The position numbers were made by a program, and so were the translations under genes. A DNA stretch of 26,939 nt, taken from NCBI GenBank assembly GCA_964431775.1, contig CAYSKU010000003.1, forward strand, positions 1 to 26,939, in the 5' to 3' direction. Under the pieces are notes generated by a model. It worked only from the letters and a program-made list of their open reading frames with translations, made no database searches and was not told where the DNA came from. This DNA comes from an uncultured Ruminococcus sp. GTDB lineage: Bacteria; Bacillota; Clostridia; Oscillospirales; CAG-272. Positions 1-22,173 of the stretch are shown one piece after another (the first letter of the stretch is position 1; every line of letters starts with the position of its first letter).

Positions 1-299
1 GGGTCGGCTGAGCCGACAGGCGGTCATCGGCGCACTTGCAGTTGAAATTGCAAGACATCCCACGACAATATTGTTTGTGCAGAGTTGCCTGAGCCGACAG
101 GCAGTCATCGGGTCGGCTGAGCCGACAGGCGGTCATCGGCGCACTTGCAGTTGAAATTGCAAGACATCCCACGACAATATTGTTTGTGCAGAGTTGCCTG
201 AGCCGACAGGCAGTCATCGGGTCGGCTGAGCCGACAGGCGGTCATCGGCGCACTTGCAGTTGAAATTGCAAGATATCCCACGACAATATTATTGGTGCA
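1..299 (+). repeat. 109-bp tandem array (~2.7 units) of the H+C dispersed repeat family; cores at 26-81, 135-190, 244-299
   Basis: GGGTCGGCTGAGCCGAC restarts at 1, 110 and 219. Units 1 and 2 are identical; the unit 3 core differs at a few positions. Probably truncated by the window start. Confidence 0.95.
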
Positions 300-413
300 G
301 GGGCAGTCTGCTGACTTTTTATTTTATTGTATTTGTTCGTCCACGGCTACACGTGTAGGAGGCTTATAAATAACAAGCTCACGTTTTTTAATAAAGAATT
401 CACCATTTAGATA

Positions 414-441
414 TTGAATTTTGACCGAAATGTGGTATACT
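414..441 (+). promoter_or_regulatory. sigmaA-type promoter for the 489-734 gene
   Basis: TTGAAT (414-419), 16-nt spacer ending in TG-n (extended -10), TATACT (436-441), in AT-rich context. Confidence 0.6.
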
Positions 442-488
442 AACAGCGTATACTCATACAAATTCCCGATAGGAAAGGATATCAGACA

Positions 489-734
489 ATGAAAAAGGAA
501 AATTCTTCCTGCACTCTGAAGAGTATCTTCGTTGTTATCGGCGCACTCGTCAGCCTCGCTGCTCTTGCGGTCGTTGTATACACGATCTTTAAGAAGTACT
601 TCAAGGTCACCTTCGAATGTGACGGCAGCTGTGACGGTTGCGAAGACGAATGCTTCGATGATGAAGATGCTTGCTACGAGCCTATCTGCTGCTGTGACGA
701 TATAGACGATGCAGAGGACGAGGACGCAGAGTAA
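489..734 (+). CDS. Small (81 aa) membrane-anchored, Cys- and Asp/Glu-rich hypothetical protein
   Basis: RBS AAAGGA at 474-479; hydrophobic helix IFVVIGALVSLAALAVVVYTIF; tail with CxxxCxxCxxxC and CCC; own promoter and terminator. Confidence 0.8.
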   Translation: MKKENSSCTLKSIFVVIGALVSLAALAVVVYTIFKKYFKVTFECDGSCDGCEDECFDDEDACYEPICCCDDIDDAEDEDAE

Positions 735-758
735 GCTTGCTTCCGAAATAAGCTCCCG

Positions 759-789
759 AAAGAGACGCACATCGCGTCTCTTTTTCTTT
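759..789 (+). terminator. Intrinsic terminator
   Basis: AAAGAGACGC-ACATC-GCGTCTCTTT hairpin followed by a T-rich tract, 25 nt after the stop codon. Confidence 0.8.
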
Positions 790-790
790 G

Positions 791-1127
791 GCGATCTGAG
801 ACCGCAAGCATGGATCGGCATTCGTGAAGCTTGGGTTGGAAGACGACCCACGACAATATTATATGTGCGGATCTATTGTAACGCATTCTCCTTCAGTCGG
901 CGTCGTCGCCATAAATGGCGACCGCGACAGCTCCCTCCCGGAGGGAGCCTAAGGCTACAAAATCTGCACCAATAACATTGTCGTGGGATATCTTCCAATT
1001 TCGACTTCACGAACGCCGATTCCTGCCTGTCGGCTCAGCAGACAAGTTTGCACCAATAATATTGTCGTGGGATATCTTCCAATTTCGATTTCACGAACGC
1101 CGATTCATGCGCCCCGCCTCAGGCGGG
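791..1127. repeat. Composite repeat: H + core(+, 814-869) + module B (~871-953) + core(-, 965-1020) + core(-, 1049-1104) + H(-, 1113-1127)
   Basis: Direct alignment by eye to the other copies; inverted arrangement. Confidence 0.9.
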
Positions 1128-1156
1128 TTGCGTATTTGGGGAAAGTGGTGTATAAT
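1128..1156 (+). promoter_or_regulatory. sigmaA-type promoter for the DUF5107 gene
   Basis: TTGCGT (1128-1133), 17 nt, TATAAT (1151-1156); RBS AAGGAG at 1186-1191. Confidence 0.65.
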
Positions 1157-1199
1157 AGGGTGATGATCTCGAACGTTAAGTTATAAAGGAGAAACAGAT

Positions 1200-3227
1200 A
1201 TGCTGAAATTCACGGAAATGCGCTTGCCGGCGGCTGACCTCGGTACACCGAACGTCCTCCCCGACGTTCGCGCAGGCTATCCCTCGGGCGATACGCCAAA
1301 CGCCCTCCCCGACACGCGCTCCGACCTCCGTCCCGACGAGACCGCATGGGTGCATAAGGGAAGGATACACTGTATGCTTCCGTATACCATGCAGGACGGC
1401 TATAACAGAGTGCTTACGGAAAAGCCGCTCAAGACCGCCGTACTCGAGAACGAGTTCCTTCGTGCGGAGTTCGCGACAGGTCTCGGCGGACGACTTTGGT
1501 CGCTCTACTCGAAGACGGAGGAGCGTGAGCTTCTTTTCAGAAACAACGTCTTCCAGCCGGCTAACCTCGCACTTCGTAACGCATGGTTCTCCGGCGGTAT
1601 CGAGTGGAACATCGGTATCATAGGTCACCATCCGTTCACCTGCTCACCGCTGTTCACCGCACGGTACAAGAACGCCGCCGGAGGCGAAACGTTGAAGATG
1701 TACGAGTACGAGCGAAAGCGCGGTATAGTGTATATCGTCCGCGCAACGCTTGCACGCGATAACCTCCTCGTCCGCGTTACTATAGAGAACCTCTCGGCTG
1801 AGGATACCTACGTCTACTGGTGGTCGAACGGCGCGTACCTCGAAACGCCCGACAGCCGTGTCATCGTTCCGGCAAAGACCTACTACAGCTACCCCTGGCG
1901 TGACGGCGTGCCGATGGTCGAGACCCCCGACGTTCCGGAGGGCGCGTATTATCCTGCCGCACACGACCACGCATACGACTACTTCTACCGTATGGAGGAG
2001 GGTCGTCACCGCTTCATGTCGTACTACAACGGAGAGGGAAAGGGCTTCGTGCAGTTCTCGACCGCAAACGAGCTCGGACGTAAGCTGTTCGTCTGGGGTA
2101 CGGAAAAGGCAGGAGGACGGAACTGGAACCGTTGGCTCTCGCATGACGACCGCTGCTACGCGGAGCTTCAAGCAGGTCTTCTGCATTCGCAGTCGGAGCA
2201 GAGACCGATGAAGGCAGGGGAGGTCATCGAGTGGACGGAGGGCTACGCCGCCTCGTCCGGCGACCCTGCTATCCTGCACGGTGCGGACTACGATGCCGCC
2301 GGACGCTACGTTGAGTCGCGCATAGTGGAGGACGGACGTATAGAGCTGGTCTGCACGGCTGATGCGTACTTCACTCCGGTCGAGGCGGAGGAGCTCGTCA
2401 GCTACGGCTCGGGCTGGGGCGCACTCGAGGAGCTTGCGCGCAGGAAGGCAGGAAGGAGCGACTGGCGACTGAGTACGAGTGCCGTCTTCCCGATAGAATC
2501 GGTCTACGGCAAGGCGGAGGAGGACTTCCTCAGGCTTCTCGAGGAGGGTCATCTGCCGTCACGTCCCGCGACGATCTCGGAGGGAGACGTTATCGAGTAC
2601 GGAGCAGGAGGGCGCATCATACACGCGCTCGAGCTGACGGAGGGCAAGGACTGGTACACTTGGCTACAGCTCGGCTGTGCGTACTACGAGGCGCGGTCGT
2701 TCGACGCGGCGCGGATGGCGTTCGAGAAGTCGATACGTGAGACGGAAAACCCGATCGCGCTACGCACGCTTGCGTGGATATACGCCGCCGATGCGGAACG
2801 CTACGGTGACGGACGTATCAGGGAGGGCGTAGGCTTGATGAAGAGGGCGGTCGAATTAGGCGGCACGGGCTACGTGCGTCTGATCATTGATGCGATACGC
2901 TATATGCAATCGTTCGGTACGGATGAGGACATAGCTGCGATGATCGAGGGGTGCGGTGCTGTGGTACGGCAAAACGGACGTATCGCGCTGTTCTACGCAC
3001 AAAGTCTCGGCAAGCTCGACAGGCTTGACGAAGCGGTATCGATCATGCGTTCCGCGCCGGAGGTATCGGACATTCGAGAGGGCGAGGTCTCGACCTCGGC
3101 GATCTGGCTCGAGCTATATCGAAAGGTGATCGCACGTGACGAGCAGCGTTCGGCAGAGTGCATCACCGACGACGAGATATTCGAGAAATACCCCATCCCC
3201 CACACCATCGACTTCCGCATGAGCTAA
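1200..3227 (+). CDS. DUF5107-domain protein with C-terminal TPR-like helical repeats
   Basis: N-terminal LENEFLRAEF..LGGRLWSL..ELLFRNNVFQPANLALRNAWFSGGIEWN is characteristic of DUF5107 as recalled; C-terminus has a TPR-like pattern (W.QLG.AYY.A..F.AA..AFEKSI); strong RBS. Confidence 0.7.
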   Translation: MLKFTEMRLPAADLGTPNVLPDVRAGYPSGDTPNALPDTRSDLRPDETAWVHKGRIHCMLPYTMQDGYNRVLTEKPLKTAVLENEFLRAEFATGLGGRLWSLYSKTEERELLFRNNVFQPANLALRNAWFSGGIEWNIGIIGHHPFTCSPLFTARYKNAAGGETLKMYEYERKRGIVYIVRATLARDNLLVRVTIENLSAEDTYVYWWSNGAYLETPDSRVIVPAKTYYSYPWRDGVPMVETPDVPEGAYYPAAHDHAYDYFYRMEEGRHRFMSYYNGEGKGFVQFSTANELGRKLFVWGTEKAGGRNWNRWLSHDDRCYAELQAGLLHSQSEQRPMKAGEVIEWTEGYAASSGDPAILHGADYDAAGRYVESRIVEDGRIELVCTADAYFTPVEAEELVSYGSGWGALEELARRKAGRSDWRLSTSAVFPIESVYGKAEEDFLRLLEEGHLPSRPATISEGDVIEYGAGGRIIHALELTEGKDWYTWLQLGCAYYEARSFDAARMAFEKSIRETENPIALRTLAWIYAADAERYGDGRIREGVGLMKRAVELGGTGYVRLIIDAIRYMQSFGTDEDIAAMIEGCGAVVRQNGRIALFYAQSLGKLDRLDEAVSIMRSAPEVSDIREGEVSTSAIWLELYRKVIARDEQRSAECITDDEIFEKYPIPHTIDFRMS

Positions 3228-3228
3228 G

Positions 3229-3438
3229 GTCGCCTGAGGCGACAGGCAGGCATCGGCGGTCGTGCAGTTGAGATCGCAAGATATCCCACGACAATATTAT
3301 TTGTGCAGGGTCATCGGCGGCAGCCTGAGGCTGCACACGGTCATCGGCGTTATTTCGGTCGAAATTGAAAGATGACCCACGACAATATTATTTGGTGCAG
3401 ATCTGTTGCTGACGTTTTGTCCTGTGCAGACCGCACGT
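3229..3438 (+). repeat. Two tandem H+C units (cores 3252-3307 and 3343-3399) plus shared tail TGCAGACCGCACGT (3425-3438)
   Basis: Hairpins GTCGCC-TGA-GGCGAC (3229-3243) and GCAGCC-TGA-GGCTGC (3320-3334); cores align to consensus. Confidence 0.9.
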
Positions 3439-3478
3439 AATAAATATGTTAGAAACGCAAGCGTTTCCTTCAATTGAT

Positions 3479-3560
3479 GCCCCTGCGCGGGGCGGCGCAC
3501 AAGGGGACTTAGTCGAAGCCCCCTTGTGAATCTCCCCGACCAGAGGCGTTCCCCCTCTGG
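3479..3560. other. Cluster of three GC-rich hairpins (REP-like), unrelated to the H/C family
   Basis: GCCCC/GGGGC (3479-3493), CACAAGGGG/CCCCTTGTG (3498-3528), CCAGAGG/CCTCTGG (3540-3560). Confidence 0.5.
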
Positions 3561-3585
3561 ACACTCCCTTTCGTGCAGTTAAGTA

Positions 3586-3733
3586 GGGGAGAATACCGAC
3601 TATCGTTTCAGTCAGTTCGTATATACCTACGAGTTGGGGTGACGTCAGCTTTCACAAAGTGAGCCGCATACGTTTTAGCGAACGGACGGAGAGGATACCA
3701 ATGGTGACGGATACGTAGTGAGGTATTCTCCCC
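3586..3733. ncRNA. Candidate structured ncRNA or MITE: 148 bp closed by a perfect 12-bp inverted repeat
   Basis: GGGGAGAATACC (3586-3597) / GGTATTCTCCCC (3722-3733), with further imperfect internal pairing. Family not identified. Confidence 0.3.
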
Positions 3734-3789
3734 GTCTATACGTAAAGCTTAGACTTATATACCGTCTGTAGACCAACGTTTATCTTAAA

Positions 3790-5799
3790 ATGAAAAACAT
3801 ACCTTTCAAGCTCACCGCCCCGTATTCCCCGACAGGGGATCAGCCGGAGGCGATAGAAAAGCTCACCGCAGGAATAGAGGCAGGTATGCGCTACCAGACC
3901 CTCCTCGGTGTCACAGGCTCGGGCAAGACCTTCACTATGGCAAACGTCATTGCTCGTCTGAACCGCCCGACCATAATCCTTTCACATAACAAGACCCTCG
4001 CGGCGCAGCTCTGCTGTGAGTTCCGCGAATTCTTTCCCGAAAACGCAGTCGAATATTTCGTCTCGTACTACGATTACTACCAGCCCGAGGCATACGTCCC
4101 CGGTAAGGATATGTATATCGAAAAGGACTCCTCCGTGAACGACGAGATCGATAAGCTGCGCCACAGCGCGACCTCCGCTCTCTTCGAAAGACGTGACGTC
4201 ATAATCGTGTCGAGCGTGTCGTGCATATACAGCCTTGGCCCTCCGGAGGAGTACGCCGGACAGGTCATCGGACTTCGACCCGGTCTCGAGCTGTCGATGC
4301 GTGAGCTAATGGCTCGTCTCGTCTCGATAAGCTACGAGCGAAACGACGTGCAGTTCGTCAGAGACAAGTTCCGTGTCCGCGGTGACGTTATCGAGATATT
4401 TCCGGCAGACTATTCCGAACGAGCGATACGTGTCGAGTTCTTCGGCGACGAGATCGACCGTCTGTCCGAGTTCGATCCGCTGACGGGACAGGTACGCGAA
4501 TACCTGACCTACGCGCCGATATATCCGGCGACCCACTACGTCGTCGATCCGACGATGCGCGAACGTGCGTTCGAGGAGATCGAGAATGAGCTTGAGGAGA
4601 GGGTGGAATGGTTTCGTTCGCAAGGGAAGCTCCTCGAGGCACAGCGCATAGAGGAGCGCACACGCTACGACCTCGAGATGCTTCGTGAGGTCGGCTTCTG
4701 CTCCGGTGTCGAGAACTATTCCCGAGTTTTTGCAGGACGTGCGCCGGGTTCGACGCCGTACACGCTCCTCGACTATTTCCCCGACGACTACATCATGTTC
4801 ATAGACGAGAGCCACGTTACGATACCGCAGGTCGGCGGCATGAGCGGCGGCGACCGTGCGCGAAAGAAGAATCTTGTAGATCACGGCTTCCGTTTGCCGT
4901 CAGCCTACGACAACCGACCGCTGACGTTCCCCGAATTCGAAGGGAAGCTGAATCAGGTCATCATGGTCTCCGCGACCCCTGCCGAATACGAAGCGGAGCA
5001 TACCGAGCAGGTCGTTGAGCAGATCATCCGTCCGACCGGACTTGTAGATCCTGAGGTAGAGGTACGTCCGGTCGAGACGCAGATAGACGATCTGCTGATC
5101 GAGATACGGGAGCGAGTGAAGCGCGAGGAGAGAGTTCTTGTCGCGACACTGACCAAAAAGATGGCGGAGGACTTGACGGAATACCTTGACGACAACGGTA
5201 TCCGTGTGAAGTACATCCACCACAACGTTGACACGATGGAGCGGACGGAGCTGTTGCGCGATCTGCGAATGGGGCTGTTTGACGTGCTTGTGGGAATAAA
5301 TCTTCTCAGGGAGGGAATAGACCTGCCGGAGGTGACACTTGTAGCTATACTTGATGCGGACAAGGAGGGACTTTTCCGAAGCACACGTTCGCTGATACAG
5401 ATGATCGGACGAGCGGCGCGGAACGCGAACGGGCGAGTGATACTGTACGCGGACAAGATAACGACCTCGATGCGCGAGGCGATAGAGGAGACGGAGCGAC
5501 GTCGCACCATACAGCAGGCGTACAACGCGGCGAACGGCATCACGCCGAGGACGATCGAGAAGAAGATCGGAGGACTGATCAAGATCGCGGCAACGGACGA
5601 GGGAGAGGCGGTCGCGCCGAAGAAGCGTGGACGTCGCAAGGCGGAGCCGGCGGTCGTTGAGAATGCGGTGACGGGCGAGACGCTCGAATCACAGCTCGAG
5701 CGACTGCAAGCCGAGATGCTACAGGCGGCGAAGGAGCTTCGCTTCGAAGAAGCGGCGTTCCTTCGCGACAAGATAAGTCGGCTGAGGTCGGCGGTCTGA
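3790..5799 (+). CDS. uvrB: Excinuclease ABC subunit B
   Basis: PTGDQPEAI, Walker [25 protein letters not shown] beta-hairpin, IDESH, C-terminal UVR coiled coil ([13 protein letters not shown]). Confidence 0.98.
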
Positions 5800-6087
5800 G
5801 ACCGCAGGCATGAATCGGTGTTCGTGAAGTTGAAAGTGGGAGATATCACACGAGGGTGGAGTTGGTGCAGGTCTGGTCTGCTGACGAGACGATATGGTCA
5901 CACGTGTATGAGCCTCCCTTCGGGAGGGAAGGAGAGCGCGTTACAATAGACTTGCACAAATAAAATTGTCGTGGGATATCTTTCAACATAAACTGAAAGT
6001 GCGCCGATGACTGCCTGTCGCCTCAGGCGACCCGATGACTGCCTGTCGCCTCAGGCGACCCGATGATTGCCTGTCGCCTCAGGCGAC
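5791..6087. repeat. Composite repeat: H (loop is the uvrB stop) + core(+, 5814-5869) + shortened module B (5909-5950) + core(-, 5953-6008) + three 28-bp H units (6004-6087)
   Basis: Direct alignment; unit CCGATGACTGCCTGTCGCCTCAGGCGAC x3, with one mismatch in the third. Confidence 0.9.
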
Positions 6088-6150
6088 TCTGCACAGCACT
6101 GAATTTCAGCGGTCATTGTTGACCGCAATTATTTTTTTACATTATAAGCC

Positions 6151-7668: not shown

Positions 7669-7672
7669 TTCT

Positions 7673-7890
7673 GTCGCCTGAGGCGACAGGCAGGTATCGG
7701 CGTACTTTCAGCTTAGATCGAACGAGCTCCCACGATGGGATGGTTTGTGCAGACTTGGTCTATAGACTGTATGCTTTTTGCAGACCGCACGTTATTTTAT
7801 TATGCTTGCGGTGACACGTTATCATCGTGGGATCGCTCTACTGTATGGCTGAACGTAAGCCGATCCATGTCCGCGGTGACACGCCGCCGC
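7673..7890. repeat. H + core(+, 7696-7751) + tail + degenerate core(-, 7809-7864) + decayed hairpin
   Basis: GTCGCC-TGA-GGCGAC 4 nt after the galK stop. The reverse copy keeps ATCGG and CCCACGA with the same spacing as intact cores but has lost TGCA. Confidence 0.8.
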
Positions 7891-8783: not shown

Positions 8784-8787
8784 GCGG

Positions 8788-9010
8788 GTCGGCTGAGCCG
8801 ACAGGCGGTCATCGGCGTTCGTGAAGTCGAGACTTTAAGACATCCCACGACAATATTATTGGTGCGGATTTGGTCTGCTGAGTCGGCTGAGTCGCCTGAG
8901 CCGACAGGCGGTCATCGGGTCGGCTGAGCCGACAAACGGTCATCGGCGTTCGTGAAGTCGAGACTTTAAGACATCCCACGACAATATTATTGGTGCGGAT
9001 TTGGTCTGCA
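8788..9010 (+). repeat. Two identical cores (8811-8866, 8942-8997; 131-bp spacing) with interspersed H units
   Basis: Direct comparison; the first hairpin starts 4 nt after the rlmH stop. Confidence 0.92.
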
Positions 9011-9865: not shown

Positions 9866-9918
9866 TACCACAGCAATACCTTAGTACCACAGCAATACCT
9901 TAGTATCACAGCAATACC
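9862..9918 (+). repeat. 19-bp tandem repeat x3 (TTAGTAYCACAGCAATACC)
   Basis: Units at 9862, 9881 and 9900; one substitution in the third. Confidence 0.95.
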
Positions 9919-9928
9919 AAACTACACA

Positions 9929-12355: not shown

Positions 12356-12359
12356 GTCG

Positions 12360-12609
12360 GCGGCGTGACGCCGCAGGCAGTCATCGGCGCACTTTCGGTT
12401 TAAATTGAAAGATATCCCACGACAATACCATTTGTGCAGGCTCGTCTTGAGGCTCCCTACGGGAGGGAGCTGTCGCGGTCGCCATTTGTGGCGACGACAG
12501 CGACTGAAGGAGAGTGCGTAACAATAGATCTGTACAAATAAAATTGTCGTGGGTCGTCTTCCGATTTTGACTGAAATAACGCCGATGTCTGCCTGTCGGC
12601 TCAGCCGAC
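12360..12609. repeat. Composite repeat: H + core(+, 12383-12438) + module B (12449-12530) + core(-, 12531-12586) + H(-, 12595-12609)
   Basis: Direct alignment; module B here is a near-identical reverse complement of ~871-953. Confidence 0.92.
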
Positions 12610-12655
12610 CGCATTTCCTATCTATTATACCACTATATTATAGAAAAGTAACCTA

Positions 12656-14713
12656 ATGAAAAAAAAAGATCAATATAATAACCAATCGATAACATCGTTA
12701 AAGGGACCTGACCGTGTGCGAAAAAGACCTGCGGTCATTTTCGGCTCGGACGGTCTTGAAGGCTGTGAGCATTCCGTTTTCGAGATCCTCTCAAACTCTG
12801 TCGATGAGGCTAAGGAGGGCTTCGGAAACGTTATAAATATTACCGCGTACCGTGACAAGTCCATCGAGGTCGAGGACTTCGGGCGCGGTCTTCCCGTCGG
12901 CTGGAACGAAGCCGAGAACCGCTGGAACTGGGAGCTCGTCTACTGTGAGCTTTACGCCGGCGGCAAATACGACAACAACTCCGACGGCTCGGCTTACGAG
13001 TATTCGCTCGGTCTGAACGGTCTCGGTGCTTGCGCGACACAGTATTCGAGTGAGTATTTCGAGGTACGCTCCTATGACGGAACGAACGTTTCGGAGATAC
13101 ATTTCGAAAAGGGCGAGCCTGTCACGGAGCTGACGGTCAGACCCCTTGAAAAGCGCGAGAAGCGCACCGGCACTGTTCAGCACTGGAGACCAGACCTTGA
13201 CGTCTTCACCGACATCGACATTCCGCGTGAATACTTCACCGATATGCTGAAGCGTCAGGCAGTCGCGAACCCCGGGATACATTTCGTCTTCCGTTGGGAG
13301 GTCGAGACTCCGCCGGAGGGGAGCGAGGATAGTGCGAAAAGGTCAAAAAAGAGCGCGAACGTTCCCGAAAGGTATTTCGAGACCGAGGAATTCTACTACG
13401 AGAACGGTATCGAGGACTACGTAGCGGAGGTTGCGGGTGACACTGCCGAAACGAAGGTCGCACACTTCCACCTTGAGACGAAGGGTCGTGACCGTGCGGA
13501 CATGAAGGACTACAAGCTCCTTGTTGACGTTGCGTTCACGGTATCGAAGACCGTCCATATGCTCGAATACTACCACAACTCGAGCTTTCTCGAGCATGGC
13601 GGCTCACCCGAACGTGCGGTAAAGACGGCGTTCGTATACGCGATAGACAAGAGGCTCAAGGCGACCGGAAAGTACAACAAGAACGAAGCGAAGATAACGT
13701 TCCAGGATATCGAGGACTGTCTGATACTCGTGACGAACGGCTTTTCGACACAGGCCTCCTACGCGAACCAGACCAAAAAGGCGATCACGAACTCGTTCAT
13801 CGCGGAGGCGATGACGGACTTTTTGAAGGAGCAGCTCGAGTATTTCTTCGCGGAGAATCCGCTCGATGCGGACAAGCTGACCGCGCAGGTACTCGTGAAC
13901 AAGCGTTCGCGTGAGCAAGCGGAATCAACGAGGCTCAATCTAAAGAAGAAGCTGACGTCATCGACAGACGTAGCAAGCAGAGTTGAGAAATTTGTAGCGT
14001 GTCGATCGAAGGATGCGGCGGTACGTGAGCTGTATATAGTTGAGGGAGACTCGGCTATGACGTCCTGCAAGCTGGCGCGCAACGCGGAGTTTCAGGCGAT
14101 AATTCCGGTACGCGGAAAGACGCTTAACTGCATGAAGGCGACCTACGACCGCATATTCAAGAGTGACATAATAGTCGATCTGCTCCGAGTTATCGGGTGT
14201 GGTGTCGAGATACAGACGAAGAACAAGTCTGACATGGTGCCGTTCGACATGGCGAATCTGCGGTGGTCGAAGATAATCATATGCACCGATGCGGACGAGG
14301 ACGGCTTCCAGATACGGACGCTGCTGTTGACGTTATTCTACCGACTTCTGCCGACCCTGTTAAAGGAGGGGCGCATATACATTGCGGAGTCGCCGCTCTA
14401 CGAGATCACTCCGGCGAAGGGCGAGTCGCTGTTTGCGTACAACGAACCCGAAAAAGCGGAGATCATAAAGAAGCTCGAAGGGTCGAAGACGAAGTACACC
14501 CTGCAACGTTCGAAGGGGCTTGGTGAGAACGAGGCGCAGATGATGTCGAAGACGACGATGGATCCGGCATCGCGCCGACTGATCCGAGTCACGCCGTCCG
14601 ATGCGGCTGAGACCGCACGTATGTTCGAGCTCATGCTCGGCGACGATCTTGCCGGACGTAAGCGGTACATTGCCGAGCACGGTGCCGAATACCTCTCCGT
14701 CGCCGACATATAG
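12656..14713 (+). CDS. Type IIA DNA topoisomerase subunit B (GyrB/ParE family; gyrase vs topo IV not resolved)
   Basis: GHKL ATPase motifs (EILSNSVDE, DFGRGLP, LYAGGKY, GLNGLGA), TOPRIM ELYIVEGDSA, PVRGK, ICTDADEDG, QRSKGLGE. Confidence 0.92.
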   Translation: MKKKDQYNNQSITSLKGPDRVRKRPAVIFGSDGLEGCEHSVFEILSNSVDEAKEGFGNVINITAYRDKSIEVEDFGRGLPVGWNEAENRWNWELVYCELYAGGKYDNNSDGSAYEYSLGLNGLGACATQYSSEYFEVRSYDGTNVSEIHFEKGEPVTELTVRPLEKREKRTGTVQHWRPDLDVFTDIDIPREYFTDMLKRQAVANPGIHFVFRWEVETPPEGSEDSAKRSKKSANVPERYFETEEFYYENGIEDYVAEVAGDTAETKVAHFHLETKGRDRADMKDYKLLVDVAFTVSKTVHMLEYYHNSSFLEHGGSPERAVKTAFVYAIDKRLKATGKYNKNEAKITFQDIEDCLILVTNGFSTQASYANQTKKAITNSFIAEAMTDFLKEQLEYFFAENPLDADKLTAQVLVNKRSREQAESTRLNLKKKLTSSTDVASRVEKFVACRSKDAAVRELYIVEGDSAMTSCKLARNAEFQAIIPVRGKTLNCMKATYDRIFKSDIIVDLLRVIGCGVEIQTKNKSDMVPFDMANLRWSKIIICTDADEDGFQIRTLLLTLFYRLLPTLLKEGRIYIAESPLYEITPAKGESLFAYNEPEKAEIIKKLEGSKTKYTLQRSKGLGENEAQMMSKTTMDPASRRLIRVTPSDAAETARMFELMLGDDLAGRKRYIAEHGAEYLSVADI

Positions 14714-14716
14714 TCG

Positions 14717-14852
14717 GGCGGCTGAGCCGCCAGACGGTCATCGGGGCGGCTGAGCCGCCAGACGGTCATCGGCGTTCGTGAAGTTTAGGCTGAAAGCGAT
14801 CCCACGACAATATCATTTGTGCAGGGCAGCTGAGCCGGCGGTCTCAGACCGC
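14717..14852. repeat. Two 28-bp H units + core(+, 14768-14823) + reverse H (14838-14852)
   Basis: GGCGGC-TGA-GCCGCC at 14717 and 14745, starting 3 nt after the stop codon. Confidence 0.9.
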
Positions 14853-14949
14853 CGCCGCTTCATGCTTGCGCTCCTCTTCCGCTGCCAACGCGCCTCCCAT
14901 AGGAGGTTTCAAGCTGTAAAAAATTTTTTCCATAACGGAGGACTTACAT

Positions 14950-16455
14950 ATGCTGAGATCAACATTGCATCTTCATCCCGCTTTTACTGTCGGAGATGTC
15001 GATCCGCGTATCTTCGGCTCGTTCATCGAGCATCTCGGTCGTGCCGTGTATCACGGTATCTACGAACCGGATCACCCGACCGCCGATGACGAGGGCTTCC
15101 GCGGCGACGTCCTCGAAATGGTCAAAAAGCTCGGTGTGCCGATCGTTCGCTACCCGGGCGGTAACTTTGTTTCCGGCTACCGTTGGGAGGACGGCACAGG
15201 CGACCGTGCAAAGCGTCCGCGCCGTCTCGAGCTTGCATGGGGCGTTACCGAAACGAACGAGGTCGGTATCGATGAATTCCAGAGCTGGTGCAAAAAGGCA
15301 GGCTCCGAAGTCATGATGGCGGTCAACCTCGGTACTCGCGGACCGGAGGAGGCTCGTCAGCTCGTTGAATACTGCAACCACCCGGGCGGAACCGAGTATT
15401 CGGATCGTCGTCGTGCAAACGGCTTCGAGGAGCCGTTCGGCATCAAGGTATGGTGTCTCGGTAACGAGATGGACGGCTCGTGGCAGATGGGTGCGAAGAC
15501 CGCGACAGAGTACGGTCGTATCGCCGCAGAGGCGGCAAAGCTCATGAAGTGGACAGACCCGTCCATTGAGCTTGTAGCCTGCGGTGCATCGGGCTACGGT
15601 ATGTGCGGTGACTGGGAAGCGGAGGTACTTCGTCACGTTTACGATCACGTTGACTACATCTCCCTTCACAGCTACTACGGCAACCCTGCGAACGACACCC
15701 CGACGTTCCTTGCCTCGAGCCTCGACATGGAGACGTTCATCCGCACGGTCTGCGGCATTGCCGACTACATCAAGAAGATCAAGCATTCGAACAAGACGAT
15801 GTATCTGTCGTTTGACGAATGGAACGTATGGTTCCACAGCCACGGCGTTCCGTTTGAGAAGTGGTCTGTCGCGCCGCCGCAGCTCGAGGACATATACACG
15901 TTCGAGGACGCGCTCGTTGTCGGCTGTCTGATGATGACTCTGCTTCGCCACTGTGACCGCGTAAAGATGGCTTGTCTTGCACAGCTGGTGAACGTCATAG
16001 CACCGATCATGACGGAGAACAGCGAAAACGGCGGACGTTGCTTTGCACAGACGATCTTTTATCCGTTCATGTATATGTCGCGCTACGCACGAGGCACAGT
16101 GCTTGACGCCAGAGTCGTCTGCGACAAGTATTCGACCGCGCACGTCAAGGATGTACCGTACATCGAGTCACTCGCGGTGCTTCACGAGGACACGTCCGAG
16201 CTTGACATATTCGCGGTGAACCGTTCGCTTGACGAGGACAGCGACTTTACCATCGATCTGTCCGCGTTCGGCAGCTCTGTCGAGGTGATCGAGCATATCA
16301 CGATGACCAACGACGATCTCAAGGCTGTGAACACTGCGGACGATCCCGAGAACGTCATACCCGAAGCGAACGGTGATGCGACCGCAAGCGGCACGACCCT
16401 CACCGCGACCCTCGGCAAGCACTCCTGGAATATGCTCCGCGTAAAGGTCGGCTGA
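14950..16455 (+). CDS. abfA: Alpha-L-arabinofuranosidase, GH51
   Basis: IFGSFIEHLGRAVYHGIY, RYPGGNFVSGYRWEDG, WCLGNEMDG (acid/base), LSFDEWNVW (nucleophile), AQLVNVIAPI; RBS GGAGG. Confidence 0.95.
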   Translation: MLRSTLHLHPAFTVGDVDPRIFGSFIEHLGRAVYHGIYEPDHPTADDEGFRGDVLEMVKKLGVPIVRYPGGNFVSGYRWEDGTGDRAKRPRRLELAWGVTETNEVGIDEFQSWCKKAGSEVMMAVNLGTRGPEEARQLVEYCNHPGGTEYSDRRRANGFEEPFGIKVWCLGNEMDGSWQMGAKTATEYGRIAAEAAKLMKWTDPSIELVACGASGYGMCGDWEAEVLRHVYDHVDYISLHSYYGNPANDTPTFLASSLDMETFIRTVCGIADYIKKIKHSNKTMYLSFDEWNVWFHSHGVPFEKWSVAPPQLEDIYTFEDALVVGCLMMTLLRHCDRVKMACLAQLVNVIAPIMTENSENGGRCFAQTIFYPFMYMSRYARGTVLDARVVCDKYSTAHVKDVPYIESLAVLHEDTSELDIFAVNRSLDEDSDFTIDLSAFGSSVEVIEHITMTNDDLKAVNTADDPENVIPEANGDATASGTTLTATLGKHSWNMLRVKVG

Positions 16456-16542
16456 GCCGACGGGCGGTCATCGGCGTTCGTGCAGTTGAAATTGGGAGAT
16501 ATCCCACGACAATTTCATCTATGCAGATCTAGGCGGTCTGCA
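16447..16542 (+). repeat. H (loop is the abfA stop) + core(+, 16470-16525) + tail
   Basis: GTCGGC-TGA-GCCGAC at 16447-16461; TGA at 16453-16455 ends the ORF. Confidence 0.92.
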
Positions 16543-16567
16543 AGAAAAGCTCCCATACGAATAATAA

Positions 16568-16613
16568 AACAGCAAGCTCCGGCAGATCGTTTGTCCTGTC
16601 GGAGCTTGCTGTT
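16568..16613. terminator. Probable bidirectional terminator between convergent abfA and ABC genes
   Basis: 18-bp stem AACAGCAAGCTCCGGCAG / CTGTCGGAGCTTGCTGTT (one G-U), A-rich on the left and T-rich on the right. Confidence 0.7.
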
Positions 16614-16658
16614 ATTTTGTCAGCTTCACGTTTAGGCTTTCTTCATGAGGTGCGGTCA

Positions 16659-16993
16659 GTCGGCGGTCGGTGAAGTCAAAATTGTATGATATCCCATGAT
16701 GGTGTAGATAATGCGTTATAATAAAGCAATTCTAAGCTTAATGTAACGCACTCTCCTTCAGTCGTCGTTGTCGCCTCAGCCGATCTTATAGACCAAGTCT
16801 GCACAAACTCCACCATCGTGGGATATCTCCCAACTTAAACTGCACGAACGCCGATTCATGCCCATCGCCTCAGGCGACCCGATGACTGCCTGTCGGCTCA
16901 GGCGACACGATTCATGCACCAATAACATTGTCGTGGGATGTCTCCCAACCTAAACTGCACGAACGCCGATTCATGCCCGTCGCCTCAGGCGAC
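16659..16993. repeat. Degenerate core(+, 16659-16715), partial module B (16742-16775), cores(-) at 16800-16855 and 16915-16970, H units to 16993
   Basis: Direct alignment; the terminal hairpin overlaps the TAG stop of the minus-strand ABC gene by one base. Confidence 0.88.
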
Positions 16994-19900
16994 TATTCGC
17001 TGCGGAGGGCTTCGACGGGGTCTTTTTTGGCGGCAAAGTTGGAGGGGATCAGTCCGGCAATGAGAGTCAGTGCCATGCTGATCAGTATCAGCGCGACCCC
17101 TCCGACGACCGGCAGACGTGCAAGGTTCGATATGTCGGTCAGATGCTTGATTATCATGTTCGCAGGTATGCAGAGGAGCAGCGTCACACCGATACCGATA
17201 ACGCCGGAGGATAGACCAACTATCAAGGTCTCCGCGTTGAATACTCTCGATATGTCACGCTTCGATGCTCCGATCGCACGAAGTATACCGATCTCCTTCG
17301 TCCGCTCGAGCACGGAGATGTACGTTATGATACCGATCATTATAGACGATACCACCAGCGAGATCGAGACGAACGCTATAAGTACGTAGGATATTACGTT
17401 GATTATCGTCGAGATGGAGGACATCATGAGTGCTACATAGTCAGTGTAGTTTATTATGTCCTCCTCACGTCCATCGTCCGAGCAGCTGCGGTTGTACTCG
17501 GCTATGATCTCCGAGATCATGTCCTTGTCCTCGAACGTCTTCGCGTAGATGTTGACCGAGGTCGGCGAGAGCTTCGTGCTGTAGCCGAGAAGGGAAAGAT
17601 TGTCCTCGTAGGTCGAGTCGGAGAACCACGCCGGCATATACTCCGCATACCCCTCCGCGACCGCTTCGTCCGACAGCTCATCGAGAAGTGCGTCAAGCTG
17701 TGCCGCAAGCTCGTCCGTGGACAGCGTGCCGAGCTGACTCTCGATCTGCTCCGCATACGCCGCCTTGACCTGCGCCGATACGATCCGGAGTGCCATTTCG
17801 GCAACGTCCTCCTCGGACATCGAGGTCATGTACGCCTCGACTGCCTGCGCCTCCATGCCGCTCTGCTCGATCATAGCCGCACGTACCAGCTCGACCGCCG
17901 CACCCTCCGGCATTGCCGCAAGCTGCTCCGTTGCCTGTGCGAGCGCGTCCTCGTCCGACATGGTCGAAGCCTTCTTCGCGTAGACAGCAGCCTTGTCGGC
18001 TACATTCATCGAGGCTATCTCCTCACGAATGTACGGCGCGGTCGCCGCTCCCTCGGGTATCTCCGTCGTGCCGTCGTCAAATCTAAGCCCCGTCAGAACG
18101 TCTGTCGCCTCGTCCGCAAGCTGCGCCTTTATAACGTCCGCCTCGGCGGTAGCTTCAAGGATGTACTCCGTCAGCGCGGATGTGTAGCCGATAGCACCGG
18201 TCAGTGATGCCGCTACCGCCTCGGGGTCGGGACGAACGATACCCGATATGCGAAGCTTCTGTGCATCCTCGATAACGACCCTCATGAACGCCTCGTTGTC
18301 GCCCATGTATTCGAACGTTCCGTCCTCCGCACGGCGATAGCAGTCGGAGGGGAGAACGAGCGCGAATTCACGCCCGAGAAGCTCGTCGAACGCCCAGCTC
18401 GTGCTCTCCGCATCGAACGTCTCTCCTGCGGCAACTGCCGACATCATATCCTTTAATTCGTCGTTGTCCTTGAGACCGAGCGCGTACAGGAATACGTCGT
18501 TGACCTCGTTGTTCTTGTCGATGACGAGAACGACCTCGTCATATGAGGAGGGCCAGTGTCCGGCAACAACGTCGTATTGCTCCGACATCAGCTCCTCGTT
18601 GTCGATCATCTCCTGCCATATGCTGAGTCCCGAGGAGGTCGAGAGAAGACTGCTCATGCCGCCGACCGCACCGGAGGCTATGCCGCCCTGTGCCGCTTCG
18701 TCAGACGAGGGCGCGGACGCTGCACCGCCGAGCATAGTTCCGGCGAACATCTCGGAGGGATTGAGCCTCGTTATGCCGTCCGAGGTGTCGGTGGAGTATA
18801 TGTGCAGGGGGACGTTGTAGCCGTACATGACGGTGGAGGCGTAGTCTGATATGCCCGACTCGTCACCCTCGAGGTACTCAATGAACGCGGAAAGGTTGTT
18901 CTCGCGAACGTCTGCGGACATCATCGTGTCCATGAGGTCGTACATCATGACGTTCGAGTAGACGTAGCCGTCCTCGTGTGACTTGAGCGAACCCTCACGC
19001 GACTCCATGAGGGAGGTCATCAGTGAGGACATATCGACAGTTGACTGCTGTATCGAAATGGGGTAGGTGGAAAGAGTATCCTCCTGCACCTTGTCTATGT
19101 AGAGGTCGATACCGTTTGAGAGGGAGAGTATCAGCGCGATACCGATAATACCGATAGAGCCGGCGAACGCGGTAAGGAACGTCCGACCCTTTTTGGTCAT
19201 AAGGTTGTTCATGGAGAGGGAGACCGCCGTTGCGAAGGACATGGAGGTCTTGCCGCTCTTTGCGTTTTTGGCTCTTGCCGAAGCTGTGTCGGCGGCAGAG
19301 CTGTCACGGAGCTCACGAGCCTCCTCCTCGGGGGAATAGGGGTCGGAGTCGGAAAGGACACGACCGTCAAGGAGACGGATTATCCTGGTGGAGTAGCGAT
19401 CCGCAAGCTCGGGGTTGTGGGTGACCATGATGATGAGCTTTTTCTTTGCGATCTCACGGAGTATCTCCATTATCTGGACACTCGTTTCGGAGTCGAGCGC
19501 GCCGGTGGGTTCGTCTGCGAGGAGGATGTCGGGGTCGTTGACGAGCGCACGTGCGATAGCGACACGCTGCATCTGACCGCCGGACATCTGGCTCGGCTTT
19601 TTCTTCAGCTGATCGCCGAGACCGACCGCCTCGAGAGCCTCTGTCGCACGCTTACGTCGTTCGGCGCGTGAAACGCCGGAGAGGGTCAGAGCCAGCTCGA
19701 CGTTCGAGAGGACGGTCTGATGGGGAATGAGGTTGTAGCTTTGGAAAACAAAGCCGATGGAGTGGTTGCGGTAGGCATCCCAGTCGCGATCGCGAAAATC
19801 GGTGGTGGGAACGCCGCGCACGGACAGCTCACCGGAGGAGTAGCGGTCGAGACCGCCGATGATGTTAAGCAGGGTAGTCTTTCCGCAGCCCGAGGGACCG

Positions 19901-20019
19901 AGTATCGATACGAACTCGTTCGGTCGGAACGCGATGGAGACACCCTGTAGGGCGGTAACGTCGCCGGAGGGGTAGGTCTTCGTAATGTTTGTTAAACGGA
20001 GCATAGCTTGCCTTTCCAC
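16993..20019 (-). CDS. MacB/FtsX-type ABC transporter, fused ATPase + permease (1008 aa)
   Basis: GPSGCGKT Walker A, MSGGQMQR signature, LADEPT Walker B, one TM helix, large extracytoplasmic domain, FtsX-like C-terminus (SVLERTKEIGILRAIGA). Confidence 0.92.
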   Translation of the reverse strand: MERQAMLRLTNITKTYPSGDVTALQGVSIAFRPNEFVSILGPSGCGKTTLLNIIGGLDRYSSGELSVRGVPTTDFRDRDWDAYRNHSIGFVFQSYNLIPHQTVLSNVELALTLSGVSRAERRKRATEALEAVGLGDQLKKKPSQMSGGQMQRVAIARALVNDPDILLADEPTGALDSETSVQIMEILREIAKKKLIIMVTHNPELADRYSTRIIRLLDGRVLSDSDPYSPEEEARELRDSSAADTASARAKNAKSGKTSMSFATAVSLSMNNLMTKKGRTFLTAFAGSIGIIGIALILSLSNGIDLYIDKVQEDTLSTYPISIQQSTVDMSSLMTSLMESREGSLKSHEDGYVYSNVMMYDLMDTMMSADVRENNLSAFIEYLEGDESGISDYASTVMYGYNVPLHIYSTDTSDGITRLNPSEMFAGTMLGGAASAPSSDEAAQGGIASGAVGGMSSLLSTSSGLSIWQEMIDNEELMSEQYDVVAGHWPSSYDEVVLVIDKNNEVNDVFLYALGLKDNDELKDMMSAVAAGETFDAESTSWAFDELLGREFALVLPSDCYRRAEDGTFEYMGDNEAFMRVVIEDAQKLRISGIVRPDPEAVAASLTGAIGYTSALTEYILEATAEADVIKAQLADEATDVLTGLRFDDGTTEIPEGAATAPYIREEIASMNVADKAAVYAKKASTMSDEDALAQATEQLAAMPEGAAVELVRAAMIEQSGMEAQAVEAYMTSMSEEDVAEMALRIVSAQVKAAYAEQIESQLGTLSTDELAAQLDALLDELSDEAVAEGYAEYMPAWFSDSTYEDNLSLLGYSTKLSPTSVNIYAKTFEDKDMISEIIAEYNRSCSDDGREEDIINYTDYVALMMSSISTIINVISYVLIAFVSISLVVSSIMIGIITYISVLERTKEIGILRAIGASKRDISRVFNAETLIVGLSSGVIGIGVTLLLCIPANMIIKHLTDISNLARLPVVGGVALILISMALTLIAGLIPSNFAAKKDPVEALRSE

Positions 20020-20278
20020 GGCTGTTTCTCGGGCGACTTCAAGTATCTCTCTTCACTGTAAAAGTTATTCAAGGTCAAAAGCTACGTTTGAATCTGCTCG
20101 TTTACAGCTCAAATGTTAAAATTTCTTATCGCAATAATTATACCCACGGCATATATCGATTTCTACTCCAATTTGTAAAGAAAAGTTAAATTAGAATGAG
20201 TGGAAAGGGAAGCATAGTAGTACAAAAAGCACTGCAACGGTAGGGGAGATCGTAAAGTTTCATAATACGGTTGAGACG

Positions 20279-20609
20279 GCGGTCTGAGACCGCTCGTCGC
20301 CGTTGTCGCCACAAATGGCGACCGTGATGCCTCCCTCCGGGAGGGAGGGGGACCGCGTAAGCGGTGGAAGGAGAGCGCGTTACAATAAATTTGCACCAAT
20401 AACATTGTCGTGGGATATCTTTCGACCCAAGCTTCACGAACGCCGACTATGCCTGTCGCCTGAGCCGACCCGATTCATGCCTGTCGTCTCAGGCGACCCG
20501 ATGACTGCCTGTCGTCTCAGGCGACCCGATGACTGCCTGTCGCCTCAGGTGACCCGATGACTGCCTGTCGCCTCAGGCGACCCGATGACTGTCTGCGGTC
20601 TCAGACCGC
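20279..20609. repeat. H(+, 20279-20293) + module B variant + core(-, 20392-20447) + six ~28-bp H units (20443-20609)
   Basis: Units start at 20443, 20470, 20498, 20526, 20554 and 20582. Confidence 0.92.
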
Positions 20610-20619
20610 CGACCCGACC

Positions 20620-20648
20620 TTGCTTTTTTGGTGGCTTTGTTGTACAAT
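20620..20648 (+). promoter_or_regulatory. sigmaA-type promoter for cysteine desulfurase
   Basis: TTGCTT (20620-20625), 17 nt, TACAAT (20643-20648). Confidence 0.55.
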
Positions 20649-20725
20649 ATACCTGAAAAACGGCTCATGATGAGCCGATGCAGTCATACCGTAACACCGT
20701 AAATCCATGATCCGAGGTGATATTC

Positions 20726-21877
20726 TTGATATACGCGGACTATGCCGCAACGACTCCGGTATCAGAGCGCGTTTGCGCCGTACTCTCCAACGCTACTCGT
20801 GAGGTATTCGGTAATCCATCCTCCCTCCATTCGGTCGGACGTGCCGCCGCAAGGCTCGTCGATCGCGCTCGTGAACAGGTCGCCGCGCTCCTCGGCTGCC
20901 TGCCCGAGGAGGTCTTCTTTACCTCCGGCGGTACGGAGTCCGATAATCACGCCGTGCGACTTGCCGCAGGTCGTAACATCGTGACCTCCGAGATAGAGCA
21001 TCCTGCCGTCCTCGAAGCCGCTCGACATATGTCGGGACGGCTCGACCTGATCGATACCGAACCAAGCGGTCGCGCCTCCGTCTCCTCACTCGCTCACCTG
21101 CTCGGGGAACGTGAGGTCGCGCTCGTCTCGCTTATGTACGCAAATAACGAGACAGGTGTCGTGCAACCGGTGCGTGAGGCGGCAGCTGCCGCTCATGCGG
21201 TCGGTGCGCTGTTCCACTGTGACGCCGTGCAGGGCGTAGGTCACGTCATGCCCTCCGTCCGTGAGCTTGACTGCGATCTTATGTCCGTCTCCGGACACAA
21301 GCTCCACGCGCCCAAGGGTATCGGCGTTATATATATAAGGAAGGATATCGTCGAAAACGTTCCGGCACTGCACTACGGCGGAGGTCAGGAGCGCGGTATC
21401 AGGAGCGGAACGTTGCCCGTTCCGCTGATCGCCGCTCTCGGCGAAGCCTGTGACGAGGCACGCGAACGTATGCACGAGGACGACCGCCGTGTCACGCGAC
21501 TGCGTGACGCCATCGAGGACGAGCTTCTGACGATACGCGACAGCGTTCGTCTCGGCTCGGGCGAACGTATGCCCGGGATACTCGATATCGCGTTCTCGGG
21601 AGTGGGAGGGGAAGCACTCACGTTGCTCTGTGACCTGCGCGGAGTTGCGATCTCCGCAGGCTCGGCTTGCCATTCGGGAGATCTATCGCCCTCGAGAGTT
21701 CTATTATCGATGGACGTGCCGTCCGAGCTTGCTTTATCCGCGATACGCATCTCCATCGGACGATACACCACGTCAGAGGAAGCCGAGCGCATCGTCTCCA
21801 CCGTCCGCACCTGCCTCGCTCTCTCCCTCGGGTCTGTCGGGTCGGCTGAGCCGACAGGCATGAATCGGCGTTCGTGA
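20726..21877 (+). CDS. Cysteine desulfurase (IscS/NifS family); start more likely TTG 20726 than GTG 20717
   Basis: YADYAATTP, GNPSSLH, FTSGGTESDN, PLP lysine in SGHKLHAPKG, catalytic Cys in SAGSAC; GAGGTG RBS 6 nt before TTG. Confidence 0.92.
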   Translation: MIYADYAATTPVSERVCAVLSNATREVFGNPSSLHSVGRAAARLVDRAREQVAALLGCLPEEVFFTSGGTESDNHAVRLAAGRNIVTSEIEHPAVLEAARHMSGRLDLIDTEPSGRASVSSLAHLLGEREVALVSLMYANNETGVVQPVREAAAAAHAVGALFHCDAVQGVGHVMPSVRELDCDLMSVSGHKLHAPKGIGVIYIRKDIVENVPALHYGGGQERGIRSGTLPVPLIAALGEACDEARERMHEDDRRVTRLRDAIEDELLTIRDSVRLGSGERMPGILDIAFSGVGGEALTLLCDLRGVAISAGSACHSGDLSPSRVLLSMDVPSELALSAIRISIGRYTTSEEAERIVSTVRTCLALSLGSVGSAEPTGMNRRS

Positions 21878-22173
21878 AGCTTGGGTCGAAAAATATCACA
21901 CGACAATGTTATTGGTGCAACCTTGGTCTACAGAGCCGCCTGAGCCGACAGGCATGAATCGGCGTTCGTGAAGTTGAGGTTTGAGGATGACCCACGAGGG
22001 TGGAGTTTGTGCAGTCTGCAAAGGCAAACGTTCTATAGATACCGTGCAGTCTGCAAAGGACAAAATTTCTGTAGACAAGTTTGCACCAATAACATTGTCG
22101 TGGGTCATCTTCCAACTTCAACTTCAAGTGCGCCGATGACCGCCGCCGATGACTGCCTGCGGTCTCAGACCGC
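21841..22173. repeat. H + cores(+) at 21864-21919 and 21958-22013 + core(-) at 22082-22137 + reverse H (22159-22173)
   Basis: Direct alignment; the first unit overlaps the last codons of the desulfurase. Confidence 0.92.

Follow-up and report, generated by a model that had tools for sequence, protein, structure and literature searches.

Among described bacterial repeats, the closest counterparts of the family reported here are BOX, RUP and SPRITE, which are amplified in one species, sparse in its relatives and slow in current transposition (PMC3049150), and the REP sequences, whose GTAG class often touches or overlaps gene ends and supplies stop codons (PMC3733652). The window analysed here comprises 26,939 nucleotides (nt), contig 3 (CAYSKU010000003.1) of a 2.41 Mb draft genome of an uncultured Ruminococcus sp. 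(GCA_964431775.1, hereafter denoted G000; 301 contigs, 80% completeness, 0.9% contamination). An initial annotation of its first 22,173 nt, made from the letters alone, had drawn attention to a repeat in most intergenic gaps, built from a small hairpin with a TGA loop and a core of 56 nt, and had likened it to modular dispersed repeats of the REP/BIME and BOX type. That analogy is borne out: the features of the BIME/BOX class, namely short non-coding modules of variable number and order, high copy number and an extragenic location, are all found here. We consider it probable that the repeat is a lineage-amplified family of small, non-coding, non-autonomous DNA repeats of the BOX/BIME/REP kind. 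Set against Rfam, plasmids, phages and viral contigs the family is new; its general kind is already familiar.

A genome-wide repeat family

With at most three mismatches allowed, the core pattern ATCGGCG-N26-CCCACGA-N12-TGCA matches the window 22 times, compared with 0.03 times in dinucleotide-preserving shuffles. The matches sit at precisely the core positions first reported, and all 22 are 56 nt long, as had been claimed. The 23rd clear copy (3343), which is 57 nt owing to a 1-nt insertion, was recovered with a profile built from all genomic core copies (cut-off E=1e-3). The profile also recovers a decayed minus-strand copy, reported at 7809 and found at 7816-7864; a second decayed copy, at 16659 (+), is discernible by eye but does not reach E=1e-3. 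The initial annotation had expected a genuine family to run to hundreds of copies, and G000 contains 851 pattern matches on 189 contigs. The profile identifies 1,159 cores on 200 of the 301 contigs, approximately one per 2 kb, with no length change in 779 of 916 near-full matches; sequence repeated at least 20 times makes up 6.65% of the assembly. A core lies within 300 bp of 146 of the 602 contig ends, and the repeat is therefore probably what fragments the G000 assembly.

The family is not a product of misassembly, the outcome that would have undone the first description. Three DNA metagenome studies and one metatranscriptome supplied contigs for comparison with 19 kb of the window; its genes recur in these independent runs at 98.6-99.9% identity over 19 kb, the contigs break at the same element borders, and words of the element bin reach 28-37x the gene depth in independent metagenomes. 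The presence of the same sites in four independent runs rules out an assembly artefact. The runs containing the window sequence are animal gut metagenomes, and the neighbours by UvrB come from gut metagenomes, of ruminants and others, as assembled genomes of Clostridia or Oscillospiraceae-like bacteria.

The remaining 101 contigs of G000 (0.6 Mb, a quarter of the assembly) are without any core; their G+C content is 51.5%, compared with 53.9%, and their tetranucleotide usage is shifted. Recent acquisition as islands or prophage could account for them, as could foreign contigs in the bin. A stretch on one of the repeat-bearing contigs (contig 12:13437-15377) codes for tail-fibre-like proteins.

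Hairpin, core and accessory modules

The consensus from all copies reads GG-c-CG-g-C TGA G-c-CG-g-C AGGCAGTC, then ATCGGCGTTCGTGAAGTTGAGATTGAAAGATATCCCACGACAATATTATTTGTGCA, then GATTTGG, and the parts of a unit follow in the order hairpin, linker, 40-nt core part, 16-nt end part and tail. The building blocks besides the tail are denoted H, C1 and C2, and each module begins with ATCGG. H consists of a G, a 6-bp stem, the TGA loop, the returning stem and an 8-nt linker; C1 is 40 nt long (ATCGGCG...CCCACGA); C2 is 16 nt long and ends in TGCA, after which comes the tail GATTTGG(TCTGC), which the initial annotation had described and which stands as a weaker consensus. The modules combine as (H)n-C1-C2, as (H-C1)n-C2, or as inward-facing pairs around two further modules, B and D, which sit beyond the tail. 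Module B, with ~220 copies of its GCTCCCTCCCGGAGGGAGC hairpin, lies between inward-facing arms in either orientation; module D is TGCAGACCGCACGTAAT, with 66 copies.

H units occur in runs of 1-6 with a 29-nt period, whilst C1 repeats together with H in 63-nt arrays (contig 133:1727-1978; at least 10 units on contig 185), in which C2 is carried only by the final unit, as CAATATTATTKGTGCA or the alternative GGGTGGAGTTTGTGCA. Two other explanations of the 63-nt arrays were rejected: their sense frames contain stops, which excludes translated repeats, and their 'spacer' parts are near-identical and the genuine CRISPR repeats of G000 differ in sequence, which excludes a CRISPR array. No G000 CRISPR spacer matches an element over its full length.

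The TGA-loop hairpin, proposed at the outset as the usual upstream neighbour of the core, is confirmed by the window alignment, in which 93% of stem cells are paired (0 of 500 shuffles were as good) and compensatory changes affect five of the six stem pairs. Throughout G000 the stem is 6 bp in 90% of cases and the loop TGA in 96%, and the base preceding the hairpin is G (71%) or A (24%). Perfect 6-bp/TGA hairpins number 1,242, compared with 4-45 for each of eight control loops. There are seven main stem types (GTCGGC, GCGGTC, GTCGCC, GGCGGC, GCAGCC, GCGGCG and CCCGCC), across which 96% of stem cells are Watson-Crick, with strong Watson-Crick covariation at four stem positions. Among the mispairs G:T (30) is no commoner than A:C (41), and pairing is thus maintained symmetrically on both strands; this points to a hairpin kept at the DNA level rather than as a one-strand RNA. 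The symmetric upkeep of seven stem types with a fixed loop also suggests a DNA hairpin or cruciform recognised by its shape.

Within the core, positions 1-7, around 26-30, 34-41 and 50-56 are conserved and the remainder is a two-state mosaic; the conserved boxes TCGGCG, TCCCACGA and TTGTGCA stand at fixed spacing. To judge from its fixed length and from the conservation of the three boxes across genera, the core resembles a platform for protein binding. No significant RNA fold is predicted for a single H-C unit (z from 0 to -1.6 relative to shuffles), and an internal helix pairing positions 10-15 with 24-29 was rejected as a general feature, being that of a subfamily only (210 of 807 cores, compared with 161 +/- 9 in shuffles). 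Some cores contain a weak sigma-70-like TTGAAA/TTGAGA-N16-GACAAT directed toward the tail (42-69, 151-178, 260-287, 3268-3295 and 16486-16513), which is a consensus match only.

Placement at gene ends

Placement was scored against 1,926 codon-model gene calls in G000. Not one core lies in a gene interior, in agreement with the intergenic location first noted, and every core that overlaps a called gene sits at its extreme 5′ or 3′ end. Neighbouring cores form 419 close tandem pairs and 155 inward-facing pairs within 400 bp, with just 3 close outward-facing pairs; the hairpin side is thus always toward the adjacent gene. Of the 302 elements with the hairpin toward a gene end, 235 overlap the stop codon or begin at most 6 nt beyond it; those with the hairpin toward a gene start are mostly separated from it by >60 nt. 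The stop-to-core distance peaks at 15 nt, the TGA loop being itself the stop codon (53 genes, including uvrB and abfA), at 23-29 nt, the stop directly abutting the stem (114 genes), and at -13 nt, the stop being the TGA within the TTCGTGAAG core variant (20 genes).

In total ~90 genes end inside an element. For uvrB the last ~7-8 codons and the TGA stop (5797-5799, the hairpin loop) are element sequence; homology to 46 congeners ends ~22-25 nt ahead of the stop codon, and the C-terminus differs from the ...RDKIRALEGTK of relatives. TAG is enriched beside the hairpin (28% vs 13.5%). A TA-targeted (IS630-like) insertion at TAA/TAG stops was rejected as a general rule, the flanks toward gene starts showing no TA, and flank profiles revealed no sequence target for element placement. 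Orientation set by replication was likewise rejected, since elements in the sense orientation still predominate at genes assigned by GC skew to the lagging strand (14 vs 8; weak data). Three factors may together produce the tight fit to stop codons: an element end tolerant of nearby genes, selection against the disruption of promoters, and stops present within the element in two of the three frames.

Such a position raises the question of function in RNA. As part of the 3′ untranslated region, transcribed with the upstream gene, the element could act as an mRNA 3′ stabiliser, terminator, processing site or small RNA; this would suit elements that begin at the stop codon and the solo or tandem arrays of single orientation in co-directional gaps, 110 of 134 of which run in the same sense as the upstream gene, as well as the element words present in RNA-run contigs and the weak promoter-like TTGAAA-N16-GACAAT of some cores. 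Elements are, however, equally common where two promoters diverge (59 of 148 gaps) and with the hairpin toward gene starts, they are common also in gaps between convergent genes (76 of 206), and one congener (G023) has a copy in a 5′ leader. Intrinsic terminators are no rarer behind element-bearing genes (32%, compared with 23% without elements), and the elements were accordingly rejected as terminator replacements. In the stems G:U does not outnumber A:C, shuffled sequences fold as well as H-C units do, and a known RNA family is rejected, with nothing in Rfam 15 at the gathering score and only one unrelated chance match at E<=1. We judge a role at the RNA level to be quite improbable.

Distribution in relatives and empty sites

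The congener set comprises 52 species of the genus. The pattern trained on G000 is essentially absent from 24 congeners, whilst a covariance model built from the 23 window copies (R1) detects diverged copies in 15 of the 52, for example at least 42 in G023 (96% complete, 30 contigs), 19 in G044, 16 in G024 and 12 in G047. The other 37, high-quality genomes among them, have no detectable copy, and copy number across the 52 runs from 0 to >1,000. The same model gave no matches in 150 other genomes sampled throughout the order, of which 7 belong to this family. With a cross-species model (R2) the repeat is detected in 10 of 150 genomes of the taxonomic family, distributed patchily over eight further genera; one genome (G221) has at least 28 matches, many at contig ends. 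The relatives have the same boxes as G000 (TCGGCG, ~26 nt, TCCCACGA, ..TTGTGC) beside a hairpin of another stem and loop, GYGGGG-AAGC-CCCCRC. On contig 2 of G023 (L043 1441-1830) two diverged copies occupy the 5′ leader of a purB-like gene, downstream of a promoter-like TTGTGC..TATAAT and ahead of the gene start, rather than a 3′ end.

Sites that are filled in G000 are empty in the sister taxon (that of contig RHMF01021386.1) and in ten congeners, as the initial annotation had anticipated for a mobile element. The closest congeners are only ~77% identical in uvrB DNA, and in ten congeners the uvrB 3′ end has an ordinary terminator and no element. The sister-taxon contig L180, from a metagenome, has the same gene order and a ParE 91% identical, with no element on either side of parE; in the gap before parE a terminator and other sequence stand instead of the composite at 12356..12611. 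The C-termini of the proteins of this region are equally long in both, and two stops are TAA in L180 and TAG with a hairpin in G000. Together, the empty orthologous sites, the range of copy number and the patchy occurrence among genera speak for past mobility and against an indispensable cis-acting signal. The first description had offered two readings; that of a non-autonomous repeat is supported, with probable mobility in the past (empty sites, >1,000 copies), whereas that of a genome-wide cis-acting RNA signal is disfavoured, because G:U pairs are not tolerated in the stems, the core does not fold significantly and the sites are not kept from one species to another.

The conservation of the unit could instead serve the host, the hairpin and fixed-length core forming a binding or structural site for a chromosomal protein, with the boxes, spacing and hairpin of each copy under selection. 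BIMEs bind gyrase and IHF, and uptake sequences act in other bacteria. A length fixed at 56 nt and three conserved boxes in a unit whose remainder has diverged by ~50% would fit such a signal, as would the conservation of the boxes across genera, pairing maintained on both strands, the very high and even density on 200 contigs, and the failure to find a transposase. Yet the sites are not conserved between species, being empty in the sister taxon and congeners; 37 of the 52 congeners have no detectable copy, ~0.6 Mb of the assembly is without copies, and a copy number of 0 to >1,000 fits a dispensable element better than a required signal. We regard a host-serving DNA signal as an unlikely, though by no means negligible, alternative to a repeat that was mobile in the past.

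Age and present dynamics

Mean pairwise identity is 65% over 88 nt, and the nearest copy elsewhere in the genome has a median identity of 86%. Tandem neighbours are 78% identical, inverted partners 63% and random pairs 65%; identical units are nearly all local tandem duplicates, their groups lying within one contig in 15 cases and spanning contigs in 2. The sole structural difference over 19 kb is in run X3, which is without one 28-nt H unit at window 14716, so that the number of hairpin modules varies between strains. These observations point to an old expansion, little current dispersal, and continuing local gain and loss of modules; little dispersal now is concluded because the units are diverse and the sites unchanged among strains. 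An element that is currently amplifying, one of the suggestions in the initial annotation, is not borne out, the copies being old and diverged, nor was the presence/absence polymorphism it had proposed to look for seen among strains over 19 kb.

Mobilisation and interpretation

Several results weigh against the interpretation as a once-mobile repeat. Y1/RAYT (PF01797), TnpB, rve, IS110 and mutator domains were not found in G000, which is 80% complete, and Y1 is also absent from the near-complete carrier G023; Y1 transposases occur in 21 of the 52 congeners but not in the carriers G023, G044 and G042, and hence do not track the repeat. No transposase is among the 30 genes annotated from 32 intervals bracketed by inward-facing cores; the other intervals were left without annotation. 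Neither a target-site duplication nor defined termini could be identified. Among strains there is no empty-site allele over 19 kb, and the divergence of the copies (nearest distant copy, median 86%) leaves no direct sign of current transposition. Finally, strict 56-nt length and conserved boxes despite ~35% divergence could reflect per-copy selection for a host function.

The 30 annotated genes comprise 27 ordinary enzymes, transporters or housekeeping genes and 3 without a family match, two of them phage-tail-like by eye; three inward-core intervals in G023 likewise contain no transposase. The flanked HUH/Y1 (RAYT-like) or other transposase suggested as a partner was thus found neither in G000 nor in G023, and the sole transposase trace in G000 is a weak ISAs1-like fragment on a repeat-free contig. 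Multi-copy protein genes, considered as insertion sequence (IS) candidates, proved to be only paralogous enzymes, Cas7 and two small resolvases. Plasmids, phages and IMG/VR contigs gave no matches, a single IMG/VR pattern match being due to chance and not recognised by the model, and a plasmid, phage or viral origin was rejected.

The 155 close inward-facing pairs, compared with 3 outward-facing, and the module B between their arms in either orientation might suggest that the mobile unit is the H-C...C-H composite, as a classical miniature inverted-repeat transposable element (MITE) deleted from an IS or as a REP doublet moved by a RAYT (REPIN). The arms of a pair are, however, only 63% identical, the same as random pairs, the termini are variable, and the outer hairpins differ in stem type with no target duplication seen; the hairpin as a duplicated target was also rejected, the two outer hairpins of a composite being different. 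Neither an IS with these ends nor a RAYT was found, and no parent IS for a DDE-type MITE, although G000 is incomplete and a parent IS could be unassembled. A MITE or REPIN of this kind is, in our view, very unlikely.

For a non-autonomous repeat amplified in the past, we propose that dispersal would have been carried out by a trans-acting, structure-recognising DNA enzyme other than RAYT/Y1. Such an enzyme would have recognised the hairpin together with the boxes TCGGCG, TCCCACGA and TTGTGCA at their fixed spacing. Dispersal would now be rare, and elements would persist where they are harmless, flush against stop codons, incidentally giving ~90 genes their stop codons and C-terminal residues. 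Taken further, Oscillospirales-type Clostridia could possess an unrecognised system, specific for DNA structure, that has the hairpin plus core as its substrate, mobilises or maintains the units and belongs neither to RAYT/Y1 nor to the known DDE transposases; it would set units flush at stops with the hairpin toward the gene and could bring them to >1,000 copies (~7% of the genome) with boxes conserved across genera. We advance this as a speculation that is rather improbable; if true, Firmicutes would have their own equivalent of the partnership between REPIN and RAYT, built on another enzyme.

The family is among the densest small-repeat loads known to us in a Firmicute (~1 core per 2 kb, with 6.6% or more of the assembly made up of repeats). 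It probably breaks up short-read assemblies of the species, and it rewrites the 3′ ends of ~5% of its genes. With a profile of the family, these uncultured bacteria of animal guts would be better annotated, binned and typed to strain, and the family offers a concrete substrate for finding a mobilising enzyme.

Elements and other features of the window

The elements of the window are listed in Table 1.

Table 1. Repeat elements of the window and the gene ends that they adjoin (H, hairpin unit; C, core; +/-, strand)
Element	Strand	Composition	Positions of parts	Gene context
1..325	+	Tandem array truncated at contig end: H-C, HH-C, HH-C, 109-nt period, then tail	cores 26-81, 135-190, 244-299	
789..1129	both	Composite: H, core(+), module B, core(-), H(-), core(-), H(-)	H ~791-806; core(+) 814-869; module B 870-958; core(-) 965-1020; core(-) 1049-1104; last H(-) to 1127	
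870-958		Module B of the 789..1129 composite, containing GATCTATTGTAACGC.., GTCGCCATAAATGGCGAC and GCTCCCTCCCGGAGGGAGC		
3227..3441	+	H, core, H, core, tail, module D	cores 3252-3307, 3343-3399 (57 nt); module D (TGCAGACCGCACGTAAT) 3425-3441	directly follows TAA stop (3225-3227) of DUF5107 gene
5775..6087	both	Composite: core(+), tail, partial module B, core(-), three H(-)	core(+) 5814-5869; core(-) 5953-6008; H(-) 6009-6087	over uvrB end
7669..7890	both	H, core(+), module D, decayed core(-)	7696-7751; 7779-7795; 7816-7864	
8784..9010	+	H, core, tail and H fragments, HH, core, tail	cores 8811-8866, 8942-8997	directly after TAG stop 8781-8783
12356..12611	both	Composite: H, core(+), reversed module B, core(-), H(-)	core(+) 12383-12438; reversed module B 12439-12530; core(-) 12531-12586; H(-) to 12609	fills gap before parE (12656-14713); first H directly after TAG stop 12353-12355
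14714..14860	+	HH, core, reversed H-like hairpin	core 14768-14823	directly after parE TAG stop 14711-14713
16445..16995	both	Composite: H, core(+), decayed core(+), partial module B, core(-), HH(-), core(-), H(-)	core(+) 16470-16525; decayed core(+) ~16659-16714; core(-) 16800-16855; core(-) 16915-16970	abfA to ABC/FtsX gene; TGA loop of first H is abfA stop (16453-16455); last H(-) abuts stop of minus-strand ABC/FtsX gene (16993-16995)
20279..20615	-	Lone hairpin, module B, core, six-H array of 29-nt period	hairpin 20279-20295; core(-) 20392-20447	upstream of 20717 gene
21839..22173	both	H, core(+), H, core(+), core(-), H(-) units	cores 21864-21919, 21958-22013, 22082-22137; H(-) units to 22173	open reading frame 20717-21877 terminates within core(+) 21864-21919

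A second conserved motif (..AATTKATGCCCCTGCGCGGGGCGGCGCA.. followed by more hairpins) lies just after terminators, at window 3465-3560, at L180:925-1000 and on L011; it has 17 copies in G000, occurs also in congeners and the sister taxon, and could represent a further repeat or a small RNA. The initial annotation also noted a rod-like inverted repeat ahead of uvrB (3586-3733). At 9866-9925 three tandem 21-nt units (TAGTACCACAGCAATACCT-like) occupy the gap between a phosphoesterase gene and a WG-repeat gene. A frame of 1,260 codons (23110-26892, minus strand) runs antisense across the whole of a 1,060-codon SBP/GH115-like gene (22843-26025, plus strand); the codon model favours the plus-strand gene. 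Two CRISPR arrays of G000 with different repeats share the same 33-nt spacer in opposite orientation (contig 9:18531-18563 and contig 66:11978-12010), and over 18 nt this spacer matches the arabinofuranosidase gene of the window (15076-15093).

Comparison with described repeat systems

Proteobacterial REP, BIME and REPIN sequences (PMC3116915, PMC3733652) resemble the G000 family as short extragenic palindromes present in hundreds of copies, as mosaics with linkers and often as inverted pairs, and in their long-term persistence within a clade; like the GTAG REPs (PMC3733652), the G000 elements touch or overlap gene ends and provide stop codons. The flank profile of the G000 hairpins shows no GTAG or CGTC tag, however, neither G000 nor the near-complete carrier has a RAYT, and inverted partners do not co-vary as REPIN arms would (63% identity vs 65% for random pairs). 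Membership of the REP-RAYT system fails on these three features: no RAYT, no tag and no co-varying doublets. Moreover, conservation in the G000 unit falls not on the palindrome but on the unstructured 56-nt core next to it. Membership of the classical MITEs fails on termini, target duplication and parent IS, and the features of IS200/IS605-derived (PATE-like) elements are not seen in G000, which has no Y1, no TnpB zinc-ribbon domain and no conserved left-flank motif.

Pneumococcal BOX, considered with RUP and SPRITE (Croucher et al. 2011, PMC3049150), is likewise a non-coding, modular Firmicute repeat with an internal module of variable repeat number and no known transposase. These repeats share with the G000 family an extragenic location, co-transcription with neighbours and an occasional alteration of gene ends, as well as amplification in one species, with few copies in close relatives, near absence beyond and slow movement now. 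No sequence relationship with BOX was seen. Croucher and colleagues are reported to have counted ~127 BOX copies; on that figure the G000 family, with >1,100 copies in ~2.4 Mb, is ~10x denser. It is further set apart from BOX by its 6-bp TGA-loop hairpin in seven stem types, its core of fixed length and its tight abutment to stop codons.

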